A DNA stretch of 60,591 bases from a virus. Shown one piece after another: positions 1,726 to 60,159 of the stretch. Location of the stretch: IMG/VR virus record IMGVR_UViG_3300037511_000274. The stretch is one strand, 5' to 3'. The first letter of the stretch is position 1, and each line of letters begins with the position of its first letter. The notes under the pieces were generated by a model. That model saw nothing but the letters and a program-made list of their open reading frames with translations. It made no database searches and was not told the origin of the DNA. The translations under genes and the position numbers were made by a program.

Positions 1726-2547
1726 CTACCGGGACCGGCGGCTCTGGCGGTTGCTCAGGTCCAGCTCCTCGCCCGGCGCCACCAGGAGCATGGTGCACCG
1801 GCACTGGATCACTTCCTGGGGCGGCCCGAGCGGGTCACCCGGGAACCTCAGCTCGAACCCGCCCACGATGAACGGCTGGCCGAGCGGCTGGCGCTGGCCG
1901 TCCGCCACGTTGTGCGTGTGGCGCGTGCGGTTGTCGTCGGTGGCCAGCCAGACCCGCTCCAGCTCCTCGCCGGTCTCTTCCGCGTACGCGGCGAACGAGT
2001 CGGCCCGGCCGCCGTTCATCGCGCCGATGGCCTCGGTACGCGCGATGACGGTTGCCCGGTTCGGCCACCGGTCGGACGCCGTGGTTGACAGGACATTGTC
2101 AATGCGCGCCCGGAGGTCGGGTATCCCCTCGCCCAGGTTGACGCCCGTGGCCACCTCGTGCGCGACAAGCGCGTAGACCTCCTCGGGGATGCCCACCAGC
2201 CGGTTGCGCACCTCGGCCAGGTAGTTGGTGACGAACGTCCGGGCCTCCCACCGGTAGCTGTCCCCGAACAGCCGCTGGTAGGCCACGCCGAGCGCCTTCA
2301 GGATCTCCCCGTTCAGGATCAGCTCCACGGCCTCGCGCCACGCGGGCACGCGCGCCCAGACCGCGTCCGGGTCCGGGCGTCGGCCGGACCGCAGCACGGC
2401 CCGAGCGGTCTCGACCAGCCAGCCGGACAGCTCGGCCCAGAACGCGTTCCGGATGTCGCGCTCGGTGGCGCTGATCTCCAGCCGGGCGTCCAGCCGCTGG
2501 GGGAGCCAGGGATCGGTCCCCTTGCCGTTCCACGCGCTACCGGCCAC
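1726..2547 (-). CDS. MuF-like minor capsid protein (SPP1 gp7 family)
   Basis: ARTEAIGAMNGG...WLATDDNRTRHTH...PQEVIQCRCT pattern typical of Phage_Mu_F. Located directly downstream of portal. Confidence 0.85.
   Translation of the reverse strand: MAGSAWNGKGTDPWLPQRLDARLEISATERDIRNAFWAELSGWLVETARAVLRSGRRPDPDAVWARVPAWREAVELILNGEILKALGVAYQRLFGDSYRWEARTFVTNYLAEVRNRLVGIPEEVYALVAHEVATGVNLGEGIPDLRARIDNVLSTTASDRWPNRATVIARTEAIGAMNGGRADSFAAYAEETGEELERVWLATDDNRTRHTHNVADGQRQPLGQPFIVGGFELRFPGDPLGPPQEVIQCRCTMLLVAPGEELDLSNRQSRRSR
2085..2102. promoter_or_regulatory. orphan dyad site TTGACAGGACATTGTCAA (perfect TTGAC-N8-GTCAA) inside the MuF gene
   Basis: Encodes IDNVLST using ATT, AAT and TCA codons in an otherwise G/C-ending gene. 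Confidence 0.5.
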
Positions 2548-2665
2548 GGTGGATCACCACCGGCTCGGGCGGGTCGGGAGGCGGGGGCTGGCGCCGCTCC
2601 ACCTCGGCGCGCGTCGCGCGGTACACGTCGTCCTCCTGGCTGGGCGGGACTCGCACGGGCCTCAT
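2537..2665 (-). CDS. small hypothetical protein (42 aa)
   Basis: ATGA overlap with the portal stop. High GC3. Fills the portal-MuF gap. Below the ORF-track cutoff. Confidence 0.35.
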   Translation of the reverse strand: MRPVRVPPSQEDDVYRATRAEVERRQPPPPDPPEPVVIHRGR

Positions 2666-4599
2666 GCCGCTACCAGCCCTCGGCCTCGGTTCGCCATGTC
2701 CAGCGCGGCGTACAGGAGGTCATCGTGGTGGCGCACGCCCCGGGTCAGCAGCTCGGTCACGTAGCCCTCCAGCAGCGCGCGGAGCGCCAGCGGGTCCACG
2801 CCGAGATCGGCCGCCAGGGTGGGCACGTGGTTCCAGGCGCCCTCGGTCACCTTGGCCGCGCGCTCCGCCGAGATCGGGCCGACCCAATGGTGAAGCTCGT
2901 GGCGCGGCACCTCGGCCCACCGGCCCCGGCGCTCGGCTGGCGTGGCCAACCGGCCGCCCGCCAGCTCCAGGGCGCGGTACACGGTGAGCTTGGCCGCCGC
3001 GTTGAACACGCGCTCCGGGGAGGGAGGAGCCAGGGCCATCCGGTCGATGCGCGCGCTCAGCGCGTCGGTGAGCGCCCGCGTCTCGGCGCCGTTGTCCGTG
3101 GGCGTGTCCGGCGCCGTGCCGCCGTTGGGCGGCCCGTCGGCCGGGGGCTCGTCGCCCTCCGGCTCCCCGTCGCCCGCTCCCCCCACGGCGGGCTGAGTCG
3201 GCGCCGGGCCGACCACGGTCACCGTGGGCAGGCCGAGGGCCGCCTGGACGTTGGGGTCCAGGATCAGCTCGGGCTTGGCCTGGACCAGCTTCAGCAGGAT
3301 CTGGGCCGCGCGCTCCTCGGGCTTGGGCATCTGCTCGTGGTCGAAAGCAGCGGCCTTGACCACCTCGCGGTCCGAGAGCAGGAACCGATCGTGAAGCTGG
3401 ATCGCCTCGTCCAGCCGGTTGGGCTTGGCCGCCAGGGTGGACGTGTCGAACATGAACGCGTAGCGCTCGGGGTTCGTGATGCCCATCTTGGACAGGGCCA
3501 GCCGCAGGAACCCCCGCGTCAGCGCGTCCGCGATCAGGCCGAGGTAGCCCTGGATCCAGCGGATGCCCTCGTCCGAGATCAGCCAGGCCGTCCAGTGATT
3601 GGCGTCCCCGATGCCGGTCAGCACCTCGGCCGGGATCTCGGCCATGCTGGCCAGCCGGGAGATGGCGCGGTCCTTCATCGGCGCGATCTCGGCGGACAGC
3701 TCGGACCAGAACGTGAGCGGCTTCAACTGCTCCACGTACTGGATCAGGTGCTCGGGCAGCGTGGCCATGATCGGCACCACGGCGCGCGCGTCGCTCTGGT
3801 CCTGGATGCTGGCCGCCGCCGCGCGCTGGAGGTAGGCCATGAACCCGGCCAGGCCCTCGGGGTCGGTCGCCTCCCGGGGGAAGTCCACGCCCTCGGGCAG
3901 GAACATGACACCGGCGCCGGTGAGCCGCGAGTCCAGCTCGGCGAACTCGCGCTTGGTCAACAGCTCGATCTCGCGCAACGGCACGATGGCCGCACGCGCG
4001 AACGAGTCGGGCTGGTCCACCTCGTTGGGGTGCGGGCGCCAGCAGCGGATCAGCAGGTCCACGCCGTCGGTCAGCGTCAGCGTCTTGCCGCCCAGGATCT
4101 GGGGCCGCTTGACCTTGACCAGGCCGCCCTCGCGCTTCAGCGCGGCGCCGGTCACGGTGAACCAGGCGCCCTCGGCCTTCTCGGGGTCGGTGGCCGCGCC
4201 CTCACCGATGATCCAGCACTCGCCACCCACGGCCAGGTCCGTGCCCGCCAGGCGTAGCTGATCGTCGCGCTGGGCGCCGGTGCCCATCGGGATCCCGGCC
4301 AGCGCCGAGATCCGCATGTCCTGGGTCTCGCCCACCTCCTCGCCACGCTCGTCCAGCTCGGCCACGTAGAGGCGCGCCTGGGCCACCGAGTCACCCACGC
4401 GCCCGGCCAGCTTGCGCAGCTCACCCACGATGTCGTGGAGCCGCCACGCCTCGGTCTGCCACTCGGTGTTCCCGAACTTCCAGGTCTTCCACGAGCTGGC
4501 CGCGCCGAGGTCCACCACGGCCGTGGCCGCCGTGATCGAGCGGCGAGCGGTTGAGCGCCGGGCCAGCGGATCGGCCAGGGCGGGACGGCGGAGGGCCAC
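2662..4599 (-). CDS. portal protein
   Basis: 645 aa. GTG start after GGGGAGG. Located immediately upstream of MuF and the protease. Size and context are typical of a portal. Confidence 0.8.
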   Translation of the reverse strand: MALRRPALADPLARRSTARRSITAATAVVDLGAASSWKTWKFGNTEWQTEAWRLHDIVGELRKLAGRVGDSVAQARLYVAELDERGEEVGETQDMRISALAGIPMGTGAQRDDQLRLAGTDLAVGGECWIIGEGAATDPEKAEGAWFTVTGAALKREGGLVKVKRPQILGGKTLTLTDGVDLLIRCWRPHPNEVDQPDSFARAAIVPLREIELLTKREFAELDSRLTGAGVMFLPEGVDFPREATDPEGLAGFMAYLQRAAAASIQDQSDARAVVPIMATLPEHLIQYVEQLKPLTFWSELSAEIAPMKDRAISRLASMAEIPAEVLTGIGDANHWTAWLISDEGIRWIQGYLGLIADALTRGFLRLALSKMGITNPERYAFMFDTSTLAAKPNRLDEAIQLHDRFLLSDREVVKAAAFDHEQMPKPEERAAQILLKLVQAKPELILDPNVQAALGLPTVTVVGPAPTQPAVGGAGDGEPEGDEPPADGPPNGGTAPDTPTDNGAETRALTDALSARIDRMALAPPSPERVFNAAAKLTVYRALELAGGRLATPAERRGRWAEVPRHELHHWVGPISAERAAKVTEGAWNHVPTLAADLGVDPLALRALLEGYVTELLTRGVRHHDDLLYAALDMANRGRGLVAA

Positions 4600-4602
4600 G
4601 GG

Positions 4603-4908
4603 TTACCTCCCCAGGTTCGAGATCATGCCAGTGACCTGGCTGAAGGCCAGGGCGATGGCCACGATCAGCATGACGGGCGAGTGGCCCCAGAACCAGACCA
4701 ACGGGGAGGCGACCAGGGCCACCCACATACCGGCGCACCACGGACAGGTGATCAGCGTGGCGATGGCCGCGCCCAGGGTATGCGGCCGGTCGTCCAGCCA
4801 ATCCACCAGGCGGTCCCGGGCGGGCTCGGTGATCGAGTCGCTGACGATCAGGCCCGTCACGCGCGCGACCGCCAGCGCGTAGATCAGCAGGAGCACCGGG
4901 TCAGTCAT
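4603..4908 (-). CDS. small membrane protein (DUF1360-like), 101 aa
   Basis: Start trimmed to ATG 4908 (MTDPVLLLIYALAV...). Three hydrophobic helices and a CPWC motif. Stop lies within the portal RBS. Confidence 0.7.
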   Translation of the reverse strand: MTDPVLLLIYALAVARVTGLIVSDSITEPARDRLVDWLDDRPHTLGAAIATLITCPWCAGMWVALVASPLVWFWGHSPVMLIVAIALAFSQVTGMISNLGR

Positions 4909-4954
4909 GGCCACATCGTACGTGCTCGGGGGACATCTCGGCCCAGGCGCCACG

Positions 4955-4972
4955 TTGACACTTCACCGTCAT
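4955..4972 (+). promoter_or_regulatory. motif copy TTGACACTTCACCGTCAT without a -10 element, between two minus-strand genes
   Basis: 16 of 17 match to the promoter core but followed by CCCGGG. Overlaps the stop codon of 4969-5439. Confidence 0.45.
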
Positions 4973-5439
4973 GACCCCGGGACGTTCAACCACCGGCAGA
5001 CCCGGCGGTTGTAGCTCTGGCGAGGGTGACCGGCCCGGGTCAGCGCGGCCATGAGGCGAGCCCGAGGGAGCGGCGCGTGGTGGTTGCGCGCGCACAGCTT
5101 CAGGTAGCGCCCGTAGATGTCGTCCTCCGGATAGAAGCCAGTCACCTCGAACGAGCGGACCGTCTCGGCCACGGGGTCCACCGCGAGCGGACCGGGCGCG
5201 GCCATGGGGAGGGTCCAACCCGCCTCCTCGTGCTGATGGCCGGAGACCCGGCGCCGGATGCGGGTCTTCACGCACCCGTAGTCCCGGAGCGCCACGCCGA
5301 GCGACACCGGGTGCTCGGGCTCGCGCTCGTCGCGCGCCATGTTCTGGGCGTACTGGCGGTAGAGGGCTTTGGCCGTGTACGTGGCGCCGGGCTTCAGACC
5401 GCCCAGGAGCCGCGTCACGTCCTCAGGGTTAACAGGCAT
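4969..5439 (-). CDS. hypothetical protein, 156 aa
   Basis: High GC3, ordinary amino-acid composition, only plausible frame here. Confidence 0.75.
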   Translation of the reverse strand: MPVNPEDVTRLLGGLKPGATYTAKALYRQYAQNMARDEREPEHPVSLGVALRDYGCVKTRIRRRVSGHQHEEAGWTLPMAAPGPLAVDPVAETVRSFEVTGFYPEDDIYGRYLKLCARNHHAPLPRARLMAALTRAGHPRQSYNRRVCRWLNVPGS

Positions 5440-5800: not shown

Positions 5801-6115
5801 TCAGACCCCGGCGTCCAGCTCGATCACCTGGCCGTCCTCGGGCCGGTGCCCTCGGTCCGGGCAGAAGTACACCGGGCGCCGCTGCTCGTCATGCTCGTGC
5901 CCAGGGTTGTGGCACCTGGCCCGCCGGAGCCGGTCAGCGACGTAGGGGAAGTCCGCTCGCCCCGGCGTCCGGATCACGTAGAGCACCGGGTAGGGCTCCG
6001 GATACGGGATCACCTCGATCACGCGCCCGCCCGAGAGACCGGAGAACGGCCCCGAGCCCTGACCGTCCGGGTCGTGGTCGATGAACACGGCCGCGCCCAC
6101 CTCGAACTCAGGCAC
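5801..6115 (-). CDS. hypothetical protein, 104 aa
   Basis: GTG start 4 nt after AAGGAGGAG. High GC3. Confidence 0.7.
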   Translation of the reverse strand: MPEFEVGAAVFIDHDPDGQGSGPFSGLSGGRVIEVIPYPEPYPVLYVIRTPGRADFPYVADRLRRARCHNPGHEHDEQRRPVYFCPDRGHRPEDGQVIELDAGV

Positions 6116-7089: not shown

Positions 7090-7107
7090 TTGACCCGTAC
7101 GTGTCAA
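7090..7107. promoter_or_regulatory. dyad site TTGACCCGTACGTGTCAA (perfect TTGAC-N8-GTCAA)
   Basis: Near-perfect 18-bp palindrome overlapping the stop codon of 7104-7226. Confidence 0.5.
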
Positions 7108-7226
7108 CCAGCAAACACGCTGACCACCGACACGCCCACACAGCACAGGACCAGCAGCGCGGCCAGGCCCAGGATCAGGCCCACCTCCATACCGGTCAGC
7201 GGCCGGTCCTCGGGGAGCAACCCCAT
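7104..7226 (-). CDS. 40-aa membrane peptide
   Basis: ATG after AGAGGAGG. Contains GLILGLAALLVLCCVGVSVVSVFAG. High GC3. Confidence 0.45.
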   Translation of the reverse strand: MGLLPEDRPLTGMEVGLILGLAALLVLCCVGVSVVSVFAG

Positions 7227-9483: not shown

Positions 9484-9512
9484 TTGACACTTCACAGTCA
9501 TGGCGGTAACGT
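9484..9512 (+). promoter_or_regulatory. promoter module TTGACA-N17-TAACGT
   Basis: TTGACACTTCACAGTCATGGCGGTAACGT. Confidence 0.7.
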
Positions 9513-9542: not shown

Positions 9543-9698
9543 ATGCCAGGACGCCACGGCCAGCCGAGCACGGGGGACGGGAAGAAGAAGTCCCGGCCGC
9601 CGATCGGCAAGGCCGAAGTGAGGGTCCAGTCCAGCTCGGGAGCATGGCTCTGGAAGCAGATAGCCGGGCTCTGGGGTGACGGCAAGAAGAAGTCCTGA
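9543..9698 (+). CDS. 51-aa basic protein, below the ORF-track cutoff
   Basis: ATG after AGAGGGG. High GC3. Flanked by promoter 9484 and terminator 9705. Confidence 0.55.
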   Translation: MPGRHGQPSTGDGKKKSRPPIGKAEVRVQSSSGAWLWKQIAGLWGDGKKKS

Positions 9699-11704: not shown

Positions 11705-11733
11705 ACCTTACAGCCATGACGTTTAAGTGTCAA
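11705..11733 (-). promoter_or_regulatory. promoter module TTGACA-N17-TAAGGT
   Basis: Reverse complement reads TTGACACTTAAACGTCATGGCTGTAAGGT followed by AGTTCT. Confidence 0.7.
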
Positions 11734-12203
11734 GCCCCGATCTTGCCGCCATCGTTGTGCGTGGCGATGGTCAGGCCGCGCGCCTCCAGCCGGTCGGTGA
11801 TGGCGCGCGCCCGCCGGTACAGCGGGCCGTCCTCGCGCTGGGTCTCGTGGAGCACTTCCTGGAGCGCGGTCTGGCCGCTCTGGTAGTCCACCGTCACCAG
11901 CGTGTCGGCGCCGATCATCCGCATGAACCAGTCGGCCGCCGTGCCCACGCCCGAGCCACCGGCGCCGCGCGGCCCGGTGTACTTCTCGCCCACGTAGGCC
12001 ACCAGCGCCCGGTCCAGGCTCTCGTAGAACTCGCCCATCTTGGGCAGGCCCCGATGGTCCAGGTTGTTGGCCGGGCTCCCGTCCGCCTCGTGCTGCTCGA
12101 TCCCGTACGCGTACATCGGGCGGCCCTCGTAGGAGGTGAACCCGTGGTCCTCCACCTCGTAGAACACCACGCCCGGCAGTGCCCACCGGTTGCTGACCCT
12201 CAT
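11730..12203 (-). CDS. hypothetical protein, 157 aa
   Basis: High GC3. Stop codon lies inside the -35 of promoter 11705-11733. Confidence 0.8.
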   Translation of the reverse strand: MRVSNRWALPGVVFYEVEDHGFTSYEGRPMYAYGIEQHEADGSPANNLDHRGLPKMGEFYESLDRALVAYVGEKYTGPRGAGGSGVGTAADWFMRMIGADTLVTVDYQSGQTALQEVLHETQREDGPLYRRARAITDRLEARGLTIATHNDGGKIGA

Positions 12204-12973: not shown

Positions 12974-13002
12974 ACCTTACCGTGATGCCTGCAAAGTGTC
13001 AA
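12974..13002 (-). promoter_or_regulatory. promoter module TTGACA-N17-TAAGGT (spacer flavour CTTTGCAGGCATCACGG)
   Basis: Reverse complement reads TTGACACTTTGCAGGCATCACGGTAAGGT. Confidence 0.7.
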
Positions 13003-15600: not shown

Positions 15601-16218
15601 CTACCGCGCGGCGAGGTACCGGCGCTGACCGGTCGTCAGCCAGAGGCGAATCTGGCTCATCTTGGGCCGCATGAGGTTGCGGCCCGAGCTGGAGTGCGCG
15701 TAGCCGAACGTGTGGAACAGCTCGTGGGCCAGGATCTTCTCCCGGCTCAGGTTGGACCGGTAGCCGTTGCGGTCCACCTTGACCGTGTCGATCGTGATCC
15801 GGTTGCCCTCGGTCACGCCCAGGTAGTTGCGTGGCAACTTGCCACCTCGCAAGGTGACACAGCGCCAGGCCCGGCCCGAGCACTTGCTGACCAGCCGCAT
15901 GTCCGAGGCCGTGTACCGGTCCAGCCAGTTCATCGCCTGGCGCACGTTCCACTTGGCCGGGCCGATCCGGTCCACCACCTCGATCACCCGCTTACGCACC
16001 GGCGTGGTGGTCGGCTTGGGCCAGGTGAAGGTCACGGCCGCCGTGGTGGTCACCGGCGCCTCGGCCAGCGCCTTGGGGCTCTGGCCGTACGGCCAGGACC
16101 ACGCGGGCGCCGGGGTGTAGGTCGGGACCGGCTTGGGGTTCTCACCGGGCAGGGGGCAACCGGCCAGCAGCAGGGCCGCCGCAATGAGTGCCGTCACCAC
16201 TCCGAGCGTGCGTCGCAT
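15601..16218 (-). CDS. lipoprotein zinc metalloprotease (HExxH, snapalysin/M7-like)
   Basis: Signal peptide with lipobox LLLAGC. HELFHTFGYAH motif. RBS AAGGAGGAGAG. Confidence 0.8.
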   Translation of the reverse strand: MRRTLGVVTALIAAALLLAGCPLPGENPKPVPTYTPAPAWSWPYGQSPKALAEAPVTTTAAVTFTWPKPTTTPVRKRVIEVVDRIGPAKWNVRQAMNWLDRYTASDMRLVSKCSGRAWRCVTLRGGKLPRNYLGVTEGNRITIDTVKVDRNGYRSNLSREKILAHELFHTFGYAHSSSGRNLMRPKMSQIRLWLTTGQRRYLAAR

Positions 16219-16227
16219 CTCTCCTCC

Positions 16228-16245
16228 TTGACAGTTAATCGTCAG
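16228..16245. promoter_or_regulatory. dyad site TTGACAGTTAATCGTCAG abutting the metalloprotease RBS
   Basis: AT-rich 18-mer in the 23-nt intergenic gap. Confidence 0.45.
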
Positions 16246-25045: not shown

Positions 25046-25172
25046 GGGAGCACCGGGCGTGTTGCCTGTGGTTGCCCGGCTCCCCCATTTCATCGGCCCT
25101 CTTAACCCCGGCCGCATGGGGCGTCCACCTTGAGTTTTGAAGCAGAGTCGTGGGCGGACCTCGGACTCTCCG

Positions 25173-31714: not shown

Positions 31715-31763
31715 AGTGGATGTGAGGGGGACACGCCCCCTCCACAAGGCCAAGGAGGCCCCC

Positions 31764-44758: not shown

Positions 44759-47700
44759 CTAACCCTGGGCGTTGGCCAGGGCCTCCAGCAGCGCCTCGGC
44801 GGCATCCTCGCCCGCCTTGGTGCCGCCACCCTGGATCACGATGGCGCCAGGCGCCAGGGTCACGTTAACGGTCCGGCCCGAGCCGCCGGTGGGAGCGGTC
44901 GCGCTGGCGCCGTCCCCTCCCCGGGCCGCGCCCGCCGTGAACGAGGGAAGCTCGGCGGTCAGCCCGGCCAGCTTCTTGCGGATCGAGCCGAACTCGTCCT
45001 GGAGCCCGTCCCCGAACCCGGCCATGACCATCCGGCCCGAGTCCCGGAGGATCTTCTGGTCCACCTCGGCCGGACCCTTCCAGTCCGGGAGCATGCTGGT
45101 CAGCGAGCCCAGCAGGGACTTGACCCGGCCGAATCCAGCCTGGATGCCCGAGATCAGACCACTGATGATCTTGGAACCGGCCGAGACCAGCCAGCTCCCG
45201 GCGCCCGCGAACGCGCCGGTAACCGCGCTCTTGACCGAGCCGATCTTGGCCCGTACCGCGCCGATCTGGTTGGCGATGCCGTTGACCAGGCCCTGGATGA
45301 TCCGGACCCCGGCCGAGATCAGCCAGCTTGCCGCGCTGGCCACCGCGCCCAGGATGGCGGACTTCACGCTGTTGATGGCCGAGCGCGCCCGGCCCACGCC
45401 GCTGGAGATGATCGAGCTGGCGAACCCCACCATCAGCTTGACGCCCGCCGCGATCATCGCGCCGAGCACGCTCAGCAGCGCGTTGACCATCGCGATGTTG
45501 ATCTGGGCGATGCCTCGCACGATCGAGGGGATCGAGCGGATCAGCGCGCCCAGCAGCGCGAGCATGAGCTGGCCCGCCGCGCTCGCAATCTGGGGACCGT
45601 TCTGCTGGAGCACCGTCACGAACGTGGGGATCAGCACGCCCGAGATGAAATTGATAATCATGGGCATGGCCGTGCCGAACGCATTGGCCAGCGCCACGAT
45701 CATCTTCACACCCGCGTCGATGATCTGCGGGTTGTTCTTCAACAGGTTGGTGATCTGCGGAATCAGCGTCCCGGTGATGAACGTGGTCAGCAGGCCGATG
45801 TTTTGCGCCCACGCCTGGAGCAATTGCTGGAGCACGGCAATACCCGCCTGAATGAACTCGGGCGCGTGCTGGAACAACTGCGTGATGGCCGGGATGATCT
45901 GGGTCGAGATCACATTGGCGATGATCCCGATATTGGACACCCAGCCCTGCATAAAGGTCTGGATGGCCTGGATGCCCTGCTGGATGAGCTGCGGTCCCTG
46001 GGTGCGCAGCGTGTTGATCAGGGTCGGGATCACCTGGGTCTGAATCGCGCTCACAAGCTGGGGGAGCGCGTTGCCGATGCCCTGGACGATGGCCACCAGC
46101 AGGTTGGTCCCGAGGAGCAGGAGCTGGGGCACGGCCGCGATCAGGGCCGAGATGATCTTGGGGATCGCCTGGATCAGCGCGGTGTAGAGCGAGGGCAGGG
46201 CGCCGAGGATGCCCTGGATCAGGCCCTGGATCAGCCGGAGCCCGGCCGAGATGATCGTGGGGATCAGGCCGATGATGCCGGTCACCAGCGTGGTCACGAT
46301 GTTGACGATGGCCGGGAGCAGCGTAGGCAGAGCGCGCACGATCCCGTCGGCCAGGCCGTTGATCAGCTCCCCGGCCGCCGCCACGACCTTGGGCACGGTC
46401 TGGACCAGGCCGTTCACCAGCGTGGTGGCGATGGCGACGATCCCCGAGATCAACTGGGGGATGATCGTGGGGAGCTGCTGGGCGATACCGAGCACGATCT
46501 GGATCACGGCGTCCAAGATTTGCTGCTTGAACGCGAGGAATTTCTGAATCAGGCCCGGCAGATTGTTGATGATGTAATTCAGGCCCTTGGTGACGATTGA
46601 CTTTATGCTGTCAACCACCCGGTCAAAGAAGCCCGGCGAGAACGCCTTTTCGATGATGTCGAATACCTGGCCGACCGAGGCGCCACCCTTGAAGGCGTCC
46701 CACGCTTCTTTCAGAATGGCGGGCAGCGGGCCGAGGAAGTTCTTTACCGCGACATAGGCGCGCGCCAGCCAGCCGATGAACTCGCCCAGCCAGCGGATCA
46801 CCTGACCGAGTCCCCGGATCAGATCCTGGAAGAAAATGGTGGCCTCGGGGCCGCTGGCCGCGATGTTGCCCAGGAAGTTCGAGATGGACTGGCCGAACCC
46901 GCCGAACTCCTTGGCGATCCCCTTCAGGAACGGGTTGGCCGCCGCCATCAGGTCCAGGAACCCCGGGAGGGAGTTGTGGACCAGCTCGGCCAGCCCCTTG
47001 GTGAACGGGACGATGGCCGGGGCCAGGATGCCGAACGCGGAGCGGATGATCGGCATGTCCCGGACCGCCTGGTCCCGGAACAGCGCGAGCGCGTCAAGGA
47101 GCGGCTGGGCAATCGGCTTGGCCGCCTTGGCGAACTCGGTCTCGATCGACTTGCCGATCTTGGCCGCCGCCGCCGCGAACTCGGGGTTGGTCTTGGCCAG
47201 CACCTTGGCGCCGATGCCGATCAGTCCGGCCGAGGCGCCAAAGATGATCCCGCTGGCGATCAGCGCACCGGCCGCCGGGCCGACCACGGCCGCGAGCCCG
47301 GCCACGGCGGTCAGCCCGGCCGTGATGAGCGCCGGGCCGATCAGCTTGGGGAGGGTGCTCAGGCCGCCGGTGAGCGCGTTGGCGAACAGGGTTGCGGAGT
47401 CGGTCCCCGTCCGGCCGAACAGGCCCGCCAGAAAGCGCCTGATGGCGTTGCCGTCGGTGTTCTTCTTGACCGCCTTGGGCAGGGCCTTGCCGAACGCCTT
47501 GCCGCCCGCGTCCCCGCCCTCGCTGCCCGCCTTCTCGCCCTCGGCCACGAACCGGCCGGTGAACGCGTCCCGGAGCCGCCCATCGGAGCCCCGGACAACC
47601 CCGTCCCCGAAGTCCTCGCCCGCGCGCTCGCCCGCCTTGCGCGCGCCGTCCTCGTCCACCGGCACCTTGACCGGGTCCAGGTCGATGCGGTCCAGGGCGC

Positions 47701-47795: not shown

Positions 47796-47813
47796 TTGGC
47801 ACTTAACTGTCAC
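47796..47813. promoter_or_regulatory. weak dyad TTGGCACTTAACTGTCAC between the tape measure gene and the plus-strand HTH gene
   Basis: Both arms match 4 of 5. Lies 14 nt from the tape measure start and 42 nt from ATG 47855. Confidence 0.3.
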
Positions 47814-47854: not shown

Positions 47855-48337
47855 ATGGACGTTTCAGCGGCCCAGCTCACCAACACCGGCGACATGGTCC
47901 AGGTGGTGGATCCCGGCTTCCCCTACACGGTGGACATCTACCTGGCCGGGGGCACCGAGCGCCCCCAGGTGAAGGGCCTTGTGGTGTGGGCACGGCCGGA
48001 CGAGGAGGGCGCGATCGAGCCGATCACCTCCACCGTGCTGGCCCAGCTCCCCATCCGGCAACTGGCCAGCGTGGCCGCCAGCGAGCTACAGGGGGAGGGT
48101 GAGGCCCAATACCGGATGCTGGCCCGGCCGCGCCCCAGCGGCTCTAGGAGCTGGCCGCCGGACCACTTCGAGCGCGTGGCGCGCGTGGCCGCTTGGGCAC
48201 GCCGGACGGGGCGCCCTGGTGGCGCTGCTGGGGCTGTGAGCGAGTTCTGGGCTGTGCACTACCGGACGGCTCGGCGCTGGATTGCTGAGGCGGCCCCTGG
48301 CCCGGAACCGACGGCGCCGGGCGCGGCCCGGCCATAG
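47855..48337 (+). CDS. helix-turn-helix protein, 160 aa (candidate regulator), apparently leaderless
   Basis: ATG 6 nt after TAGGCT. Very high GC3 in the first 96 codons. C-terminal VSEFWAVHYRTARRWIAEA is HTH-like. Confidence 0.7.
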   Translation: MDVSAAQLTNTGDMVQVVDPGFPYTVDIYLAGGTERPQVKGLVVWARPDEEGAIEPITSTVLAQLPIRQLASVAASELQGEGEAQYRMLARPRPSGSRSWPPDHFERVARVAAWARRTGRPGGAAGAVSEFWAVHYRTARRWIAEAAPGPEPTAPGAARP

Positions 48338-48842
48338 CCTCGAACTCGGTCAGGACCCGCTCGCTCGGCGTGCGCTTCTTGCCGGGCTGGGTCAGCGCCT
48401 CGTTCTCCAGGATGGCCTCGAACTTGGTCCGGGCCTCGTCCGGCAAGTTGCCGATGATAACGGCGTAGACCGCGTCCAGCGCGGCGCCGATCGAGACCAC
48501 GTCCCAGCGGAGCCCGATCTGGGCGAGGTGGCCGCCGATGGTCGGCCAGTTGCCGTCCGCCGCCAGCGCGAGCACGAGGGAGACGTGGAGCGAGCGGCCG
48601 GTGGCCTCCTCGATGGCGTCCACGCACGCCTCGCCCAGGTCGGCCGCCGAGAGCTTGCCGTCCAGGATCAGTTCGTCCAGGTCGGAACTTGACGGTAAAA
48701 GGTCAAGAACCTGGCGCGGCTGGACCGAGGTCAGGACCGGCCACCAGTCCACGGCCGGAAGCGCCGGGATCTCGAACTCCCGGCCGCCCAGGTCCATGGT
48801 GATGGCCCAGCAGCGCATCGACGCAACCGGGTCAACGTCCAC
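48144..48842 (-). CDS. tail-assembly-chaperone-like protein with low-complexity C-terminal tail, 232 aa
   Basis: MDLGGREFEIPALPAVDWWPVL.... Its last 194 nt overlap the convergent gene 47855-48337. Confidence 0.65.
   Translation of the reverse strand: MDVDPVASMRCWAITMDLGGREFEIPALPAVDWWPVLTSVQPRQVLDLLPSSSDLDELILDGKLSAADLGEACVDAIEEATGRSLHVSLVLALAADGNWPTIGGHLAQIGLRWDVVSIGAALDAVYAVIIGNLPDEARTKFEAILENEALTQPGKKRTPSERVLTEFEAMAGPRPAPSVPGQGPPQQSSAEPSGSAQPRTRSQPQQRHQGAPSGVPKRPRAPRARSGPAASS
48689..48706. promoter_or_regulatory. orphan dyad TTGACGGTAAAAGGTCAA (perfect TTGAC-N8-GTCAA)
   Basis: Encodes VLDLLPSS with GTT, CTT, CTT, TTA, TCA and AGT codons. Confidence 0.5.
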
Positions 48843-51236: not shown

Positions 51237-51785
51237 TCAGGATGAGGTCGGCCCCGCCTCGGCGCAATCGCACGCCGGTCCCCGGAGCGTTACCGGCAGG
51301 ATGCCGCCCACGCACCCGCCCTCCACGTCCACCGGTTGCCACAGGCCCGGGAGCACCCGCTGGAGCCGGTTGGCCCGGTCCGCGTCGATGAAGCAGCAGA
51401 TGGCCCGGCGCATGGCCGCCGCCGCGTCCATCACGCCCTGAGTCACGGCCAGCCACTCGTCCTCGGACGGGATCGAGTTCTCGTCCGGCGTGGGTGCGCA
51501 CCGGGCATAGCCCAGGTCCATCGTGACGGCCCAGGCCAGCGTCCCCTTGCCGGGCGTGGAGTCCTGGACCGGGAACGTGGTGGAGTTCGGATAGAAGGCC
51601 GCCGGGCGCACCCAGGCCAGCCCCTCGCAACACTCGTCCCGGACAGTTGACATGAGAAAGTCAACCGTGGCGCCGGGCCGGACTCCGATGTTCACCGGCG
51701 GCTCGGCCAGCTTGGCCAGCTCCTGGCGGTAGCAGTCCAGCAGCTCGGTTACGAGCGGCATCACCAGCGGGTCAGCGACCGGCAT
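51237..51785 (-). CDS. head-tail connector protein, 182 aa
   Basis: Context after the adaptor. CCEGLAWVRP motif seen in actinophage connector proteins (from recall). Confidence 0.65.
   Translation of the reverse strand: MPVADPLVMPLVTELLDCYRQELAKLAEPPVNIGVRPGATVDFLMSTVRDECCEGLAWVRPAAFYPNSTTFPVQDSTPGKGTLAWAVTMDLGYARCAPTPDENSIPSEDEWLAVTQGVMDAAAAMRRAICCFIDADRANRLQRVLPGLWQPVDVEGGCVGGILPVTLRGPACDCAEAGPTSS
51647..51664. promoter_or_regulatory. orphan dyad TTGACATGAGAAAGTCAA (perfect; extended arms GTTGAC and GTCAAC)
   Basis: Encodes VDFLMSTV with TTT, TCA and ACT codons. Confidence 0.5.
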
Positions 51786-51786: not shown

Positions 51787-52590
51787 TCAACTCCCCGGGT
51801 AGATGACGGTGCGCCGGTCGCGCGGCATCAGGTCCGGCGACATGATCATCGGGGGCGCCTGGCGCTTGCCCGGGTTCAGCGCGGCGATCGTATCGTCCAC
51901 CATCCGGATGCCGGTCTTGCCGTCGTCCGGCACCGGCGGCGCCACCTCGATCTCCACGCCCTGGCGGGACAGCCGGGTCATCTTGGCCGGAAGCGCGCAG
52001 TTCTGGCCCGGGGTCAGCGCCTTGGCGTACTCACAGGCCAGCAGGCCCGTGGCGATGGCCAGCGCCTCGGGGAGGGGGACGCCCTGGTCGTACGTGACCT
52101 CGAACGTGCCCACCTCGCTGGCCTCGGCCGCCGCGTTCTGGCAGATCGGCCAGCAGGTGCCATCGGTGCGCACGAGGAGGTAGGCGCCCTCGGCCACGTC
52201 CACGCGATAGCTGGCCGGGCTCACCACCTCCCCGTCCACCAGCACCTCGTCCACGGCCGCCACCGGGCCGTTGAGCACCACGCCGCACACGTTGTTGCAG
52301 CAGGCCGCCACGGTGCCCGCGTTGAACCACCGGCCGCCGTACAGGAACGGGCCGCCCTGGTAGGTGCCCGAGCCCGGGATCAGCGGGAACGTCCGGTAGA
52401 GCCACGGCTGATACGGGCTCTGGCTCGGGCGCACCGTGACCGGGCACGTGCCGAACCGGCGCCCGGTGGCCGCCCACAAGAAGGTGGACGCCAGCCACAG
52501 GGCCTTGTCCTGGGTCTCCTGGGCGTAGTCGGCCCAGCCCGAACAGTCCGGGGTCACCACGTCCCACGAACAGGGGATCGTCCTCGTCAT
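51787..52590 (-). CDS. head-to-tail adaptor, 267 aa
   Basis: ATGA overlap start at 52590. LWLASTFLWAATGRRFGTCPVTVRP is typical of adaptor proteins (from recall). Confidence 0.7.
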   Translation of the reverse strand: MTRTIPCSWDVVTPDCSGWADYAQETQDKALWLASTFLWAATGRRFGTCPVTVRPSQSPYQPWLYRTFPLIPGSGTYQGGPFLYGGRWFNAGTVAACCNNVCGVVLNGPVAAVDEVLVDGEVVSPASYRVDVAEGAYLLVRTDGTCWPICQNAAAEASEVGTFEVTYDQGVPLPEALAIATGLLACEYAKALTPGQNCALPAKMTRLSRQGVEIEVAPPVPDDGKTGIRMVDDTIAALNPGKRQAPPMIMSPDLMPRDRRTVIYPGS

Positions 52591-54032
52591 GGCTCCGTCA
52601 CCTCCTGGAAGGACTTTACAGCCCGGGGTGCCCACGGGAAGCCCGAGCCCGAGCGCGGCGCCCAGGGGAAGGACGAGACGGGCCGCCCACTCTGGCCGTT
52701 GCGGCCCTGGGTGGCGACCGCCAGCCGGAGCCCGAGCGCGGCGGCGCCCTGGGAGAGCCGGTGCCCGGCCGCCGCCACGCCGAGGCCCAGCCCGAGCGCG
52801 GCGGCGCCGAGGGAGTCCCTGGCGCCGGTGGAGGTGACGGCCAGCCCCAGCGAGAGAGCCACCTGGCCCTCGGCGCGCGCCGCTCCTTGCGAGGCTACGG
52901 CCAGCCCGATGCCGACGCCAGCGGCGCCCTCAGCGGGCGCGGCGCCGGTGCTCGCCACCGCGAGCCCGAGCCCGAGGGCCGCCTGGCCCTCGGCAGGCAC
53001 GTCCCCCGAGTCCGGGACGAACACCACGTCCACCCAGTAACCCGCGTTGTTGAACGAGCTGGTGGGGAACACCACGGACGGATCGAGATCGTCCTGGTCG
53101 TTGAACCGACCGGCGCTGCTAGCCGCGCTCAGGTCCCCGCTGGTGATCGGCCACGGGGTGCTCGCGCCGTTGCTGGAGGCGTACGCCTCGGTGCGGATGG
53201 CCGGTGCAATCTGGGCGCCCGCCGAGACATGGATGGGCGTGTCCAGCTCCAGGTAGTCCCACCAGTCCTGGATCCCGGAGGTGAAGGCGCCATCGGTGCT
53301 CGGGGTGAGCTTGGTCCCGGTGCTCCAATCGAACAGGGCGCCCTTGACGGTGGCGCCGCTCGGCTGGCTGGAGGTGTTCGGGGACCACCGGCGGATGTGC
53401 GTGATGGTGCCCGCCACGGCCGCCGTGATGTAGCTGCCCAGGGTGTAGACGGTCGAGTCGTACTGGTTGTGGGTGACCGGCTCCTGGCCGCTGAACAGCG
53501 TCTCAGCGACCATGGTCGAGCTGGAGCCGCCAGCCGTGCCGTCCCAGACCCAGCCGGGAACGTCACCGTCCCCGTACACGTCCAGCGCGCTGACCTTCTC
53601 CAGCAGCACGGCCGTCATGCCGAGGCCCGCCGCGAGCGAGTCCCAGATGACGTATATGCCGGTCGCATCGGCCGGGGCCGCCGCCGTGGTGAAGCTGGCG
53701 CGGCCCACCGCGCCGATGTCGCCCAGGACAGCGGTGTTGAACGTCTCGGGGAAGGTGTCCCCGCCGGTCGAGCGGGTGTAGCCGATGTAGACCGTGCGGT
53801 TGAACTGGAACGCGTCCGAGCCGTTGTGCATGTAGAACGAGACGGTGAACACGTCCCCCGCCGAGCACGGGGCCGCCGGGCTCTGGAGGAACCCGCCGGT
53901 GGAGGCGCGCACGCCGGTCTGACGGGGGCAGTAGGCGGGGAAGTCGGTGGCGCGCACCGCCGTGGCCGAGCCGGACCAGCCGGTCAGATCGACTTTGGCC
54001 GCCGGGTTCGGGCAGAGGTTGACCCTGCTCAC
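52587..54032 (-). CDS. virion surface protein: CBM-like N-terminal domain, DUF4082-like domain, and Ala/Gly repeat tail, 481 aa
   Basis: ...NNAGYWVDVVFVP (DUF4082-like) followed by 5 x 20-aa repeats and a duplicated FPWAPR. Confidence 0.8.
   Translation of the reverse strand: MSRVNLCPNPAAKVDLTGWSGSATAVRATDFPAYCPRQTGVRASTGGFLQSPAAPCSAGDVFTVSFYMHNGSDAFQFNRTVYIGYTRSTGGDTFPETFNTAVLGDIGAVGRASFTTAAAPADATGIYVIWDSLAAGLGMTAVLLEKVSALDVYGDGDVPGWVWDGTAGGSSSTMVAETLFSGQEPVTHNQYDSTVYTLGSYITAAVAGTITHIRRWSPNTSSQPSGATVKGALFDWSTGTKLTPSTDGAFTSGIQDWWDYLELDTPIHVSAGAQIAPAIRTEAYASSNGASTPWPITSGDLSAASSAGRFNDQDDLDPSVVFPTSSFNNAGYWVDVVFVPDSGDVPAEGQAALGLGLAVASTGAAPAEGAAGVGIGLAVASQGAARAEGQVALSLGLAVTSTGARDSLGAAALGLGLGVAAAGHRLSQGAAALGLRLAVATQGRNGQSGRPVSSFPWAPRSGSGFPWAPRAVKSFQEVTEP
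52695..52994 (-). repeat. five tandem 60-nt (20-aa) coding repeats AEGxAALGLGLAVASxGAxx
   Basis: Read from the translation of 52587-54032. Confidence 0.8.
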
Positions 54033-54385: not shown

Positions 54386-54403
54386 TTGACACTTAACAGT
54401 CAG
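54386..54403 (+). promoter_or_regulatory. dyad or core copy TTGACACTTAACAGTCAG just upstream of the RBS of 54037-54372
   Basis: Oriented antisense to the flanking genes. No -10 element. Confidence 0.45.
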
Positions 54404-57746: not shown

Positions 57747-57850
57747 GTCGCGTCTCCCCTGAGTCGGGTTGTCGGGTGGATCAGGTCTCGTCCGCCCGGC
57801 CGGTCCGAAGCTCAGGCACCGCGCGTTCTGGCGAGATCGTAGCACCGGAC

Positions 57851-57868
57851 CTGACATCTCAGCGTCAA
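57851..57868. promoter_or_regulatory. dyad CTGACATCTCAGCGTCAA in the capsid / plus-cassette divergent region
   Basis: Reverse complement reads TTGACGCTGAGATGTCAG. Lies 105 nt upstream of the capsid ATG. Confidence 0.45.
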
Positions 57869-57930
57869 TGTCCCCGGATGCCACGCATCCTAGGAAGCTA
57901 GTACGCCTGGAAAGTTTCTCGGATGAGGGG

Positions 57931-57959
57931 TTGACACTCCACAGTCATGCCTGTAATGT
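57931..57959 (+). promoter_or_regulatory. promoter module TTGACA-N17-TAATGT
   Basis: TTGACACTCCACAGTCATGCCTGTAATGT followed by AGTTCTTGTC. Confidence 0.75.
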
Positions 57960-57998: not shown

Positions 57999-58709
57999 AT
58001 GAGCACTCAGGAGCGCAACTACCGCAAGAACCCCCACACCGCGCGTTGGCTGATGGCCTTCCACGCGGCGGCTGCTGGCCTCCCGGCCGACCTGGACGGG
58101 GAGAACGATTACATGACCCCCGCCGAGCGTGGCCTGGCCGAGGAGATCGACCTCCTGAACGAGATCCCGGTGGACGCCAACCTGGACCGGCGCTCGCCCC
58201 GTCAGGCCGAGCTGATGACCAGCCTGGTCGCCCAGATCACCGAGCTGGACGCCGAGCTGGGCGCCCGCACCGGCGAGTGGATCGCCAAGGCCACCGCCGC
58301 CGGTCACTGGACCCCCGGCCGCGAGGGCAACGCCAGCGCCTGGATCACCAAGATGATCGACAAGGTCCGGGAGCTGAAGGCCGCCGCCAAGGCCACCCCG
58401 AGCACCCCGGCCGCCGAGGTGGCGAACGGCCGCTACGCGGTCGAGGAGGACGGGGTCCTGAAGTTCTTCAAGGTCACCAACGGCAAGCGCGCCGGGTTCG
58501 TCTTCCTGGACGTTCAGGCGAGCGACGAGTGGCACGCCATCCGCAACGTGGCCCGCATCCGCAAGATCGTGGCCCTGATCGCCGAGGACGCCCACGCGGC
58601 CATGATCCGCTACGGCCACGAGCTGGGCGAGTGCGGCCGGTGCGGCCGGACCCTGACGGACGAGGCCAGCCGGGCGGCCGGGATCGGCCCGATCTGCGCG
58701 AGCAAGTAG
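57999..58709 (+). CDS. hypothetical protein with C-terminal DUF6011-like zinc ribbon, 236 aa
   Basis: CGRCGRTLTDEASRAAGIGPIC at the C-terminus. RBS AGGGA. Confidence 0.8.
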   Translation: MSTQERNYRKNPHTARWLMAFHAAAAGLPADLDGENDYMTPAERGLAEEIDLLNEIPVDANLDRRSPRQAELMTSLVAQITELDAELGARTGEWIAKATAAGHWTPGREGNASAWITKMIDKVRELKAAAKATPSTPAAEVANGRYAVEEDGVLKFFKVTNGKRAGFVFLDVQASDEWHAIRNVARIRKIVALIAEDAHAAMIRYGHELGECGRCGRTLTDEASRAAGIGPICASK

Positions 58710-59453: not shown

Positions 59454-59686
59454 TCTGCCCGCCGTGCACCGAAGCGATGGGCCGGTGGCTGGACGCCCGG
59501 CCGCCCGCCGTGGGCGGGTTCTCGTTCGGCTCGGGCGCGGCGTACGACATCTCCCCGGCCGGGGTCACCGAGCGGCGCCGGGCGCGCGGCCGGTGGTGGG
59601 CCGGGATCGTGCGCGCCCAGCGCCAGACCCTGGCCGAGGCGTGCCGAGCTGGCCGCCACGTAGGGGTTGACACCTCACAGTCATGA
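59450..59686 (+). CDS. hypothetical protein, 78 aa
   Basis: GTGA overlap start. High GC3. Its 3' end reads through the next promoter motif. Confidence 0.6.
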   Translation: MICPPCTEAMGRWLDARPPAVGGFSFGSGAAYDISPAGVTERRRARGRWWAGIVRAQRQTLAEACRAGRHVGVDTSQS

Positions 59687-59695
59687 CGGTAAGGT
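59667..59695 (+). promoter_or_regulatory. promoter module TTGACA-N17-TAAGGT
   Basis: TTGACACCTCACAGTCATGACGGTAAGGT. Confidence 0.7.
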
Positions 59696-59744
59696 CTTCC
59701 TTGTACGGCGCACCGGGCGCCGGGACCGGGAAGGACCACCAGCC

Positions 59745-60086
59745 ATGATGATCTTCTTTTACATCCAGGTCACCGGCGCCGAGCGCGCCCGCCGGGTCGG
59801 CTTCAGCACCGAGCCCCAGGCCCTGACCTACCTCCGCCGGTTCTCGGGCATCGCCCACATCTATGAGGCGGCCGTGGACAACCACGACAAGGGCGCCAGC
59901 TACGCGGACATCCCGGCGGACTGGACGCTGGTCTGGGACCTGCTCTACCCGATGTGCGAGCACGGCATGTCGCTGTCCTCGTGCTACGGCCCCGACCACT
60001 TCATGAGCGCGGCCCAGGAGCAGGCGATGGACTGGCAGTACGCGGACTATGCCAGCGAGGCGTACGCGGGCATGGCCGAGGGCTGA
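59745..60086 (+). CDS. hypothetical protein, 113 aa
   Basis: ATG after GGAAGGA. High GC3. Confidence 0.8.
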   Translation: MMIFFYIQVTGAERARRVGFSTEPQALTYLRRFSGIAHIYEAAVDNHDKGASYADIPADWTLVWDLLYPMCEHGMSLSSCYGPDHFMSAAQEQAMDWQYADYASEAYAGMAEG

Positions 60087-60099
60087 GGCCCCCAGAGAC

Positions 60100-60125
60100 T
60101 GGCCCCCGGTCAATTGGCCGGGGGC
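60100..60125 (+). terminator. hairpin GGCCCCCGG-N8-CCGGGGGCC followed by TTCCCTT
   Basis: 9-bp stem 14 nt after the stop codon. Confidence 0.6.
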
Positions 60126-60130
60126 CTTCC

Positions 60131-60159
60131 CTTGACACTTCACAGTCAAGACTGTAATG
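60131..60159 (+). promoter_or_regulatory. promoter module TTGACA-N17-TAATGT
   Basis: TTGACACTTCACAGTCAAGACTGTAATGT followed by AGTTCTTGTC. Confidence 0.75.

Follow-up and report, generated by a model that had tools for sequence, protein, structure and literature searches.

An 18-bp dyad in the promoters and inside the genes of phiAsp2-like actinophages, a candidate operator of a genome-wide regulator

We asked why one short dyad, TTGAC-N8-GTCAA, recurs throughout the genome of the virus held as IMG/VR record IMGVR_UViG_3300037511_000274, in promoters and within coding sequence alike. The window, by which we mean the whole stretch of 60,591 bases analyzed here, has a G+C content of 70%. Its sole cultured relative is the Actinoplanes phage phiAsp2, which shares ~75% nucleotide identity with it across part of the genome. 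The dyad is most likely the binding site of a regulator, because it lies in promoter cores and persists inside genes despite the rare codons that this requires, in relatives as well as in the window. We consider it reasonably probable that the dyad is the operator of a genome-wide regulator and that this regulator is an 86-amino acid (86-aa) excisionase-like protein encoded by the phage itself.

We assessed the enrichment of the motif against dinucleotide-shuffled sequences. The perfect dyad was observed 8 times (0.00 expected) and the dyad with ≤ 1 mismatch 27 times (0.37 expected, with a shuffle maximum of 2), and the 16-bp core TGAC-N8-GTCA was found without mismatch 27 times against an expectation of 0.81. 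A preliminary description of this DNA had placed the dyad far above chance, which the shuffles bear out. All eight of the perfect copies that it had read exist, and two of them start one base further on, at 46597 and 60132 rather than 46596 and 60131. It had also left the eight central bases free, as in a pure dyad, and this has to be revised. The central 8 bp are constrained and have the oriented consensus TTGACACTTCACAGTCA(A/T); since this consensus is asymmetric, the 18-bp element as a whole (consensus TTGACACTTCACAGTCAA, around the core) is oriented. Sites 23343 and 48818 and an extra core match at 5026 have poor arms or centers and are probably chance occurrences. The window holds two classes of sites, namely 12 full SigA-type promoters, henceforth referred to as class A promoters, and ~14–15 copies without a -10 element. 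The motif string is absent from the literature that we searched, which did not include the 2004 phiAsp2 genome paper; conserved promoters may already have been noted there. The GenBank/RefSeq record of phiAsp2 annotates ribosome-binding sites and translational coupling, with no promoters and no repeats.

In the class A promoters, TTGAC(A/G), a conserved 17-bp spacer and TAAnGT form a SigA-type -35/-10 pair, and the dyad covers the -35 hexamer and two thirds of the spacer (~-35 to -18). The left arm had been recognized before as a consensus -35, and it reads TTGACA in these promoters. Where three promoter copies had been counted, twelve sites carry a -10 at exactly 17 bp. Eleven of them lie 0–46 nucleotides (nt) upstream of an open reading frame (ORF) on the same strand, and the twelfth (29824–29852) is inside an ORF. 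By sequence, they show the -35, the 16–18 bp spacer, the -10 of the form TAnnnT, and the placement and orientation upstream of genes that characterize SigA promoters. An Escherichia coli-type promoter scan overlooks most of them because -10 elements such as TAATGT and TAAGGT score under its threshold. Four class A promoters are gathered in a regulatory region at 30.3–32.3 kb (the “hub”), and a fifth (29824–29852) is found immediately upstream.

The same anatomy was found across the family. We pooled 191 distinct family promoter copies with arms within one mismatch, and the resulting logo reads G-TTGACACTTCACAGTCA-w-G-c-C-T-G-TAAnGT, with a conserved pyrimidine-purine pair 7–8 nt past the -10, at the expected position of the (predicted) transcription start. 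We then considered the 620 distinct family sites with a perfect core. TAnnnT lies at exactly 17 bp in 229 of them and at 16 or 18 bp in 13, and 378 (61%) have none on either strand. Promoter centers vary between genomes (CTTAAACG, CTTAAGCG, CTTCACTG and others) and are homogenized within a genome; as the centers differ between genomes while the arms are constant, the arms are the invariant feature. In the hub regions of five relatives (L091, L094, L095, L100 and L102), spacer centers are near-identical within each genome and different between genomes. This homogeneity suggests that the promoter copies evolve in concert or undergo gene conversion. Relatives have almost wholly different small genes behind their hub promoters.

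The five class A promoters on the minus strand are predicted to serve the lysis and replication genes, among others. The promoter at 11705–11733 (TTGACACTTAAACGTCAT...TAAGGT) lies upstream of small ORFs and the endolysin/holin cassette, and the TGA of its arm serves gene 11730–12203 as stop codon. The promoter at 12974–13002 has a degenerate right arm, GGCA; its transcript may be leaderless because the predicted start coincides with the ATG at 12967. The promoter at 28835–28863 would drive 28156–28794 and the replication/recombination block. The promoter at 29824–29852 stands in frame (L-T-L-H-S-H) inside the 415-aa ORF 29031–30278 (minus strand), and its phiAsp2 counterpart is located between pas42 and pas43. 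That ORF covers both of these phiAsp2 genes; either the two are fused around an internal promoter, or the gene has been called too long. The same ORF would be driven by the promoter at 30315–30343, whose center is inverted (TTGACGCTGAAGTGTCAT-...-TAAAGT) and which stands back to back with the plus-strand promoter at 30390–30418. The latter carries a perfect 18-mer and is predicted to drive 30470–30885. Two more plus-strand promoters belong to the hub: 31342–31370, placed to drive 31419–31646 and divergent from the helix-turn-helix (HTH) gene discussed below, and 31686–31714 (perfect 18-mer), placed to drive 31764–32237. Elsewhere on the plus strand, the promoter at 9484–9512 (-10 TAACGT) would drive ORF 9543–9698, and that at 57931–57959, divergent from the capsid operon, would drive 57999–58709. 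The promoter at 59667–59695, whose arm gives the TGA stop of ORF 59477–59686, is placed to drive 59745–60086, and that at 60132–60160 (perfect 18-mer) to drive 60213–60434. A GGGGG-N5-CCCCC hairpin occurs a few nt into three predicted hub transcripts (30430–30444, 31382–31396 and 31726–31740), and also in phiAsp2; it may be a 5′ stabilizer or a regulatory stem.

The dyad also lies in the core of a promoter of a different type. An extended -10, GGTGCTACGATC, found upstream of the major capsid gene, is common to all relatives compared (57835–57846 in the window, minus strand), and in 14 of the 23 sequences compared the dyad starts 6 nt downstream of this capsid -10, at ~+1 to +16. That downstream position is decayed in the window, where a dyad occupies 57851–57868 (~-39 to -22) in the core of the capsid-operon promoter. 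Judged by position, the dyad behaves as an operator would, since two types of promoter have it in their core, each in a different register. The preliminary description had called the copies outside its three promoters orphans. Some are indeed promoter-less, but others, such as that at 57851, appear to be operators of other promoters. In many relatives a short GGACATC motif precedes the capsid-operon -10, and in some it precedes the Pas26-like gene, at differing distances (loci L262–L281). The window has the variants GGACATT and GGGCATT only (at ~57860–57900 on the minus strand, and upstream of 47855). This motif may be the site of a second (late) regulator.

The flanks of the promoter-less copies are without information in the family alignment, so only the 18 bp are conserved. 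Nine convincing in-gene sites share one reading frame, xTT GAC nnn nnn nnG TCA Axx, and the remaining promoter-less copies lie at gene junctions or in the capsid-operon promoter. Five sites (4955, 7090, 11716, 16228 and 59667) supply the TGA stop of the upstream gene, because the third reading frame of the dyad would create TGA. The copies at 4955, 16228 and 54386 are placed between a stop codon and the next ribosome-binding site.

Perfect in-gene copies are found at 2085–2102 in the head-morphogenesis (Pas6/MuF-like) gene, at 46597–46614 in the Pas27-like tail gene, at 48689–48706 in gene 48144–48842 (codons CTT, CTT, TTA, TCA and AGT) and at 51647–51664 in gene 51237–51785. Imperfect copies lie at 18927–18944 in the family-A DNA polymerase gene (frame xCT GAC ... 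TCA AGC), at 25495–25512 at the 3′ end of the YqaJ-exonuclease gene, at 33911–33928 in the methyltransferase gene 33660–35540 and at 38166–38183 in the Pas30-like tail gene. The copy at 40226–40243 in the Pas29-like fiber gene shares 17 of its 18 bases with the promoter consensus; it and the copy at 42527–42544 (CTGAC...GTCAG) in the Pas28-like gene are conserved in relatives. At junctions, 4955–4972 contains the stop of 4969–5418, 7090–7107 (perfect) overlaps the TGA stop of ORF 7104–7226, and 16228–16245 holds the stop of 16242–16913 and adjoins the ribosome-binding site of 15601–16200. The copy at 54386–54403 lies in the short gap after the major-tail gene and adjoins the ribosome-binding site of the next gene. 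Past 7090–7107, the minus strand has a hairpin and a promoter-like site, TTGACT-16-TAAGAT. A weak dyad, TTGGC...GTCAC, is present at 47796–47813, where the Pas27-like and Pas26-like genes diverge, and a comparable dyad occupies the same place in at least one relative (L094). Several of the gene labels first attached to these copies were wrong: the supposed tape measure is the family-A DNA polymerase, and the copy at 7090 overlaps the stop codon of a small ORF.

We examined whether the in-gene copies follow from the proteins encoded. The genes of the window have 95% GC at third codon positions (GC3), and the in-gene sites are spelled with codons that are otherwise rare, including xTT codons (2–4% of their amino acid), TCA (3% of Ser), ACT, AGT, ATA and TTA. 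As a control, synonymous codons were shuffled 500 times within each called gene. The 12 sites with ≤ 1 mismatch that lie fully inside genes compare with a mean of 0.75 and a maximum of 4 in the shuffles, and the 4 perfect in-gene sites with an expectation of 0.04. Relatives with 60–80% protein identity have the same rare codons at the same positions. In the Pas30-like gene, the codons CTT GAC GGT TCA GTG TCA are identical in 11–13 of 14 sequences from dyad-bearing phages (64–81% protein identity), whereas the codons beside the dyad show synonymous variation in these phages, and relatives without the site have CTG, GGC and either GCC or AGC at the dyad codons. A motif-blind scan of 4510 aligned codon columns from late genes returned 18 columns with a rare codon as the conserved majority, 8 of which lie inside the three dyad sites of the late region (P = 2e-15). 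Because of the shuffle result, the rare codons kept across relatives and the 8 of 18 conserved rare-codon columns in dyads, the sequence comparisons indicate that selection at the in-gene dyads acts on the DNA and not on the protein. The preliminary description had argued as much from codon usage in the window, and both the shuffles and the relatives agree with it. The other ten rare-codon columns are outside dyads, with 33057 and 33117 (gene 32908–33663), 40457, 40526 and 41324–41339 among their positions; they could mark other DNA- or RNA-level constraints.

Comparison of genomes identifies the dyad as a family trait of phiAsp2-like phages. The phiAsp2 genome has 35 sites at ≤ 1 mismatch, of both classes, and 88 stretches of IMG/VR contigs hold the exact 17-mer; the contigs of complete length among these measure ~58–63 kb. 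Orthologous promoter-less sites recur in phiAsp2 and in 12–29 metagenomic relatives. A junction site like that at 4955, ~380 bp upstream of the portal gene, is kept in ~21 of 29 relatives, and the dyad downstream of the portal, in the head-morphogenesis stretch (compare 2085), in nearly all of the 29. The conservation comparison leaves out the sites at 18927 and 51647, for which the DNA-polymerase and 52587–54032 queries retrieved too few relatives.

The best candidate for the dyad binder is the product of 30990–31250 (minus strand), an 86-aa excisionase-fold HTH_17 protein that is the orthologue of phiAsp2 Pas39. This is the sole hub gene present in all 11 of the 11 loci that reach the hub. 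The protein has a weak match to PF12728 (HTH_17; E = 0.0047), below the Pfam cut-off, and matches to phrog_597 (E = 4.7e-13) and phrog_66 (E = 1.6e-5). Its AlphaFold (AF2) model is a beta-alpha-alpha-beta-beta-alpha winged helix with a predicted local distance difference test score (pLDDT) of 76. The best match of this model in the Protein Data Bank (PDB), using Foldseek, is the RdfS excisionase (E = 8e-3, probability 1.0, 28% identity), and the GIsul2 excisionase is also close. Sequence gives weak support to its membership in the excisionase/HTH_17 group, and the modeled fold gives moderate support. The recognition helix N-T-L-S-S-Y does not vary among 47 homologues, nor does a C-terminal RPGQGARTDL tail. 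The fold is that of RdfS-type excisionases and HTH_17 (MerR-like winged-helix) proteins, whereas the conserved tail sets the protein apart from RdfS-type excisionases, and a dyad would be an unusual target for such a fold. The gene has a SigA-like promoter of its own that is free of the dyad (TTGTGC-N18-TATAGT with TG; 31288–31317, minus strand), which is conserved in relatives, likewise without the dyad, as TTGTSN, a spacer of 17–18 bp and TGTATAGT. An intrinsic-terminator-like hairpin with a T tract (30907–30925, minus strand) lies ~65 nt downstream of the gene. With its own dyad-free promoter and terminator, the HTH gene is thus an insulated unit that would escape dyad-mediated control.

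We compared the recognition helix with the presence of dyad promoters in 31 loci found with a profile of the 86-aa protein, counting the dyad promoters within 5 kb. Dyad promoters were nearby in 20 of the 22 loci whose helix reads RNTLSSY and in none of the 9 with altered helices (ARNTLSGY, AKSTLNAY, KPGTLSAY and others), a co-occurrence with a Fisher P of 3e-6, uncorrected for phylogeny. At least four of these nine (L185 and L187–L189) keep the skeleton TTGACA/TTGCAA-N17-CTGTAAnGT, with GGCA or AGCA replacing GTCA. On these sequence data the 30990–31250 protein is probably the dyad binder and the most likely candidate. The second HTH candidate is the Pas26-like gene at 47855–48337 (plus strand), reverse-oriented in the tail block and carrying a C-terminal HTH-like helix, RTARRWI. 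The gene is conserved and overlaps the 3′ end of 48144–48842, and its product has no Pfam or PHROG match. We rejected this protein as the less likely binder because its helix is identical in dyad-less phages; of the two HTH candidates, the comparative data favor 30990–31250. Three relatives (L103–L105) are without any dyad, and the region beside the HTH gene in L104 is a different module with other repeats. Near the hub, the dyad-less locus L185 has five 33-bp tandem units (233–410), and L182 has 9-bp CAGACCCGG-type arrays in both orientations (503–640).

Outside the hub, the promoter-less copies occur roughly every 2–4 kb. In the late arm (31687–57852), the nine gaps range from 2060 to 4255 bp; their coefficient of variation (CV) is 0.27, where 0.87 would be expected (P = 3e-4), and no simulation reached a minimum gap of 2060 bp. 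The CV of the other arm (2086–28847) is 0.42–0.57, depending on the sites counted, and that of phiAsp2 is 0.48–0.60 (P = 0.01–0.03). Family-wide, dyad spacings are bimodal with a trough at 1.0–1.5 kb. These spacing tests are post hoc and the evenness is largely inherited by descent.

The window ends in an exact direct repeat of 127 bp (1–127 and 60465–60591), and it is therefore a complete, circularly closed phage genome of ~60.46 kb. Most of its genes are on the minus strand, and the gene order of phiAsp2 is that of the window once reverse-complemented and circularly permuted. Pfam and PHROGs scans covered ~70 of the 83 called products. Outside the scans were ~20 products, mostly very small ORFs, the portal, MuF and major-capsid genes and three tail/fiber genes (identified through phiAsp2); the portal and head-morphogenesis genes were assigned via orthology to phiAsp2. 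The scans identified a head-tail adaptor, a major tail protein, a family-A DNA polymerase (the 1422-aa gene), a helicase, a YqaJ exonuclease, a methyltransferase, a RuvC-like resolvase, an endolysin, a holin and an HNH endonuclease. The methyltransferase (33660–35540) is of the Methyltransf_24 type and the only one found, and a glucosyltransferase gene (32908–33663) lies on one flank. After the exonuclease gene comes a 0.5-kb gap with a tRNA-Cys (GCA; 25172–25249, minus strand), and the dyad at 25495 lies 246 bp upstream of this tRNA. The scanned products include no integrase, no partition protein (ParA/ParB, SopB or parABS) and no CI-type or gp71-like repressor, in line with the earlier statement that no integrase or classical repressor is evident. 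Alongside the 86-aa protein, neither a partner integrase for an excisionase (among the scanned products) nor an att site was found in the window.

We looked for traces of the family in bacterial chromosomes. Among the 120 of 287 matches listed for homologues of the 86-aa protein, all are on contigs of at most ~61 kb. A scan of one genome per bacterial or archaeal species (185,579 genomes) for the exact 17-mer gave 16 single matches and no intact integrated relative. Two of the 16, at the loci NZ_JBEZYA010000004 and NZ_JBFBAD010000030, are in Actinoplanes chromosomes and both adjoin fragments of phiAsp2-like genes, so the lineage leaves traces in host chromosomes. With single matches only, and such fragments at two Actinoplanes loci, a prophage origin was not retained. 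In Actinoplanes sp. NPDC051411 (L106), two dyads 54 bp apart (5877–5948) lie directly upstream of a 323-aa XRE-family gene; they adjoin a fragment of a Pas27-like phage tail protein among ordinary host genes, and the first dyad is the source of the TGA stop of the upstream ORF. In Actinoplanes sp. NPDC026619 (L113, a 456-kb contig), dyads are found at 883 and 2583, one of them in frame inside an ORF. The segment 2430–7521 of that contig holds phiAsp2-like genes in changed order, including a polymerase (54% identity), a Pas15-like gene (64%) and, as a weak match, a small-terminase-like one. The segment may be what is left of a prophage, or else a satellite-like element that shares the operator.

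In the mechanism that we favor, a protein bound to the dyad at the twelve class A promoters would exclude RNA polymerase, and the capsid-operon promoter would likewise be blocked through the dyad in its core. Two subunits of the 30990–31250 protein would bind, one per TTGAC arm, and the HTH gene would stay expressed while all dyad-carrying units are shut down. The promoter-less copies would bind the same factor and may act as elongation roadblocks; alternatively, they may be anchors for looping or cooperativity, or a reservoir that sets the free concentration of the factor.

Several points weigh against this mechanism. Binding and repression are inferred from sequence, and the role given to the intragenic copies is a guess. 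The covariation of helix and dyad is confounded by phylogeny, and it has exceptions: L180 combines the RNTLSSY helix with the absence of the dyad, and L182, which shares this helix, has right arms that are degenerate. The usual targets of excisionase-fold proteins are direct repeats, bound by monomers or filaments, and not dyads whose arms are 13 bp apart center to center. The promoter-less copies have mixed center orientations relative to transcription, so a strictly polar stoperator mechanism is unsupported. It is hard to see why a purely lytic phage would shut off its early, lysis-cassette and capsid promoters jointly, and a factor silencing all of these promoters resembles a lysogenic repressor, yet no lysogeny genes were found among the scanned products.

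We weighed other explanations of the dyad against an operator read by the phage protein. A DNA-binding protein of an Actinoplanes-type host could bind the dyad and couple the phage to a host state such as sporulation, as does Bacillus phage phi29 through host Spo0A boxes and Spo0J/parS sites. This would fit the lack of a classical repressor among the scanned phage products, the exact 17-mer in two Actinoplanes chromosomes (with two dyads upstream of an XRE-family gene in one) and arms that stay invariant while phage proteins diverge to 60–80% identity, as expected with a slowly evolving host binder. We nevertheless consider a host factor unlikely, since 16 single matches in 185,579 species genomes, two in Actinoplanes, adjoining phiAsp2-like fragments in both cases, resemble phage remnants and not a regulon, and since dyad loss tracks the changed recognition helix of the phage protein. 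Rather less probable still is that the promoter-less copies are evenly spaced architectural or segregational anchors for a DNA-bending, filament-forming excisionase-like protein that would condense, loop or partition the genome, with promoter control as a side effect; prophage N15, with its dispersed centromere repeats, offers a parallel. The sites outside the hub are spaced more evenly than random placement would give (late-arm CV 0.27 against 0.87), no orientation bias is seen and the nearest structural match of the candidate is an excisionase. However, the spacing result is post hoc and depends in the other arm on the sites counted, no ParA/ParB-like gene is among the scanned products, and the strongest and most conserved copies are in promoter cores.

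The promoter-less copies could also be functionless, as decayed or truncated promoters or as scars of mobile promoter cassettes. Promoter cassettes are homogenized within a genome and flank highly variable small genes, which suggests cassette turnover. Such relics are very improbable here: all that the promoter-less copies keep is the 18 bp, with no trace of a -10 region that is conserved just as well, and they are in frame in unrelated conserved genes, at orthologous positions, with rare codons retained at 60–80% protein identity, where neutral remnants in 95%-GC3 genes would have decayed. An RNA-level role, with a UUGAC-loop-GUCAA hairpin on transcripts, or a nuclease or modification target with an interrupted palindrome, seems the most remote of all. 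The consensus can form a weak 5-bp stem (-4.4 to -5.0 kcal/mol in either orientation), and GAC-Nx-GTC is a common type of restriction site. We found no Rfam family match, however, and the dyad of the 12 class A promoters is upstream of the predicted start and thus outside their transcript. Phages tend to deplete restriction targets rather than conserving them, and the only methyltransferase found is of the Methyltransf_24 type with a glucosyltransferase gene on one flank. The conservation data contradict both the relic and the RNA reading, as does the placement of the promoter copies ahead of the predicted start, and an RNA-level element was rejected. MerR-type activation was also rejected, as the spacer is 17 bp and not 19–20 bp and the 86-aa protein has no long (coiled-coil) helix. 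As a spacer element, the dyad might finally be the loading site of a Q/AlpA-type antiterminator on RNA polymerase leaving class A promoters, since some annotators call the family of the candidate protein AlpA-like and Pseudomonas AlpA recognizes an element between -35 and -10 (PMC9371919). That AlpA has at least ~140 residues (DNA contacts R128–H142) and eight helices, and it acts as a single molecule on a 6-bp element and requires a sigma-dependent pause (PMC9371919). The protein here is an 86-aa winged helix and the site an 18-bp dyad, different in kind from the Pseudomonas protein and its site, and 61% of family sites are without a promoter; we therefore rejected antitermination as highly unlikely.

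We compared the dyad and its candidate binder with repeats described in other phages. The repressor of the temperate, integrase-bearing Streptomyces phage phiC31 binds multiple conserved inverted repeats (CIRs) at early promoters that are not known to be of the SigA type, and the CIRs are intergenic. The likeness lies in multiple inverted-repeat operators at promoters, whereas the promoters here are SigA-type and dyads occur in coding sequence too. The phi29 and N15 systems, whose sites silence or segregate the genome, depend on host Spo0A/Spo0J or on phage SopAB. Like them, the window has repeated (here predicted) protein-binding sites scattered through the genome, late regions included, but no ParB/SopB-type gene was found among the scanned products and the sites overlap every strong promoter. 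The closest described cases are the stoperators of Cluster A mycobacteriophages and the 17-bp dyad repeats of Cluster O.

The comparison with stoperators made in the preliminary description is apt. As in the L5 gp71 type, an operator in the early lytic promoter is combined with many copies genome-wide, in genes as well as in short intergenic gaps; the arrangement suggests silencing across the whole genome, with the gene for the regulator exempt. The L5 operator also holds the -35 hexamer TTGACA. The differences are several. Stoperators are asymmetric 13-bp sites oriented with transcription (PMC4351075), whereas the site here is an 18-bp dyad with no consistent orientation, its center being inverted in the promoter at 30315–30343. 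The scanned products include no integrase, parABS or gp71-like repressor, and the candidate binder has an excisionase fold. Cluster O phages carry a dyad repeat, TGTTCGG-N3-CCGAACA, in more than 30 copies per genome; they are not obviously temperate and have no integrase and no parAB, and about one third of the repeats are in coding regions with no orientation rule (PMC4351075). Their genomes have 8–9 strong SigA-like promoters, with which most repeats are not associated, and O-methyltransferase/glycosyltransferase genes beside the structural genes, and no function has been assigned to the repeat (PMC4351075). The window likewise has a dispersed dyad in tens of copies, intergenic and intragenic, in an integrase-less actinophage with methyltransferase/glycosyltransferase neighbors. 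Here, however, every strong promoter has the dyad as part of its -35/spacer and the core of the capsid promoter contains it as well, its arm geometry is 5-8-5 as opposed to 7-3-7 with a different sequence, and both conservation at synonymous positions and a candidate binder are documented.

To our knowledge, dispersed operator-like repeats are mechanistically understood for Cluster A stoperators only, and the Cluster O dyads are unexplained. The phiAsp2-like family lends itself better to a test, in that the dyad occurs in every strong promoter and in the capsid promoter, is under selection inside genes, is spaced near-evenly and comes with a candidate binder. In addition, the window illustrates in detail how regulatory DNA can override codon usage in 95%-GC3 genes. 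If the phage protein does read the dyad as an operator, the family would show what dispersed repeats do in a phage without lysogeny genes, would add a dyad-binding regulatory role to the excisionase fold, and would provide a compact promoter/operator pair for high-GC actinomycetes. A more far-reaching version, which we hold to be doubtful, is that integrase-less actinophages have a system of whole-genome silencing, with dyads at roughly even spacings of ~2–4 kb, carried in coding sequence at a cost to translation and read by an excisionase-fold protein whose own gene is the only one outside this control. Were this true, a seemingly lytic phage could become dormant without integrating, for instance while its host sporulates, or alternatively the genome would have a looped, roadblocked architecture so far undescribed for phages.

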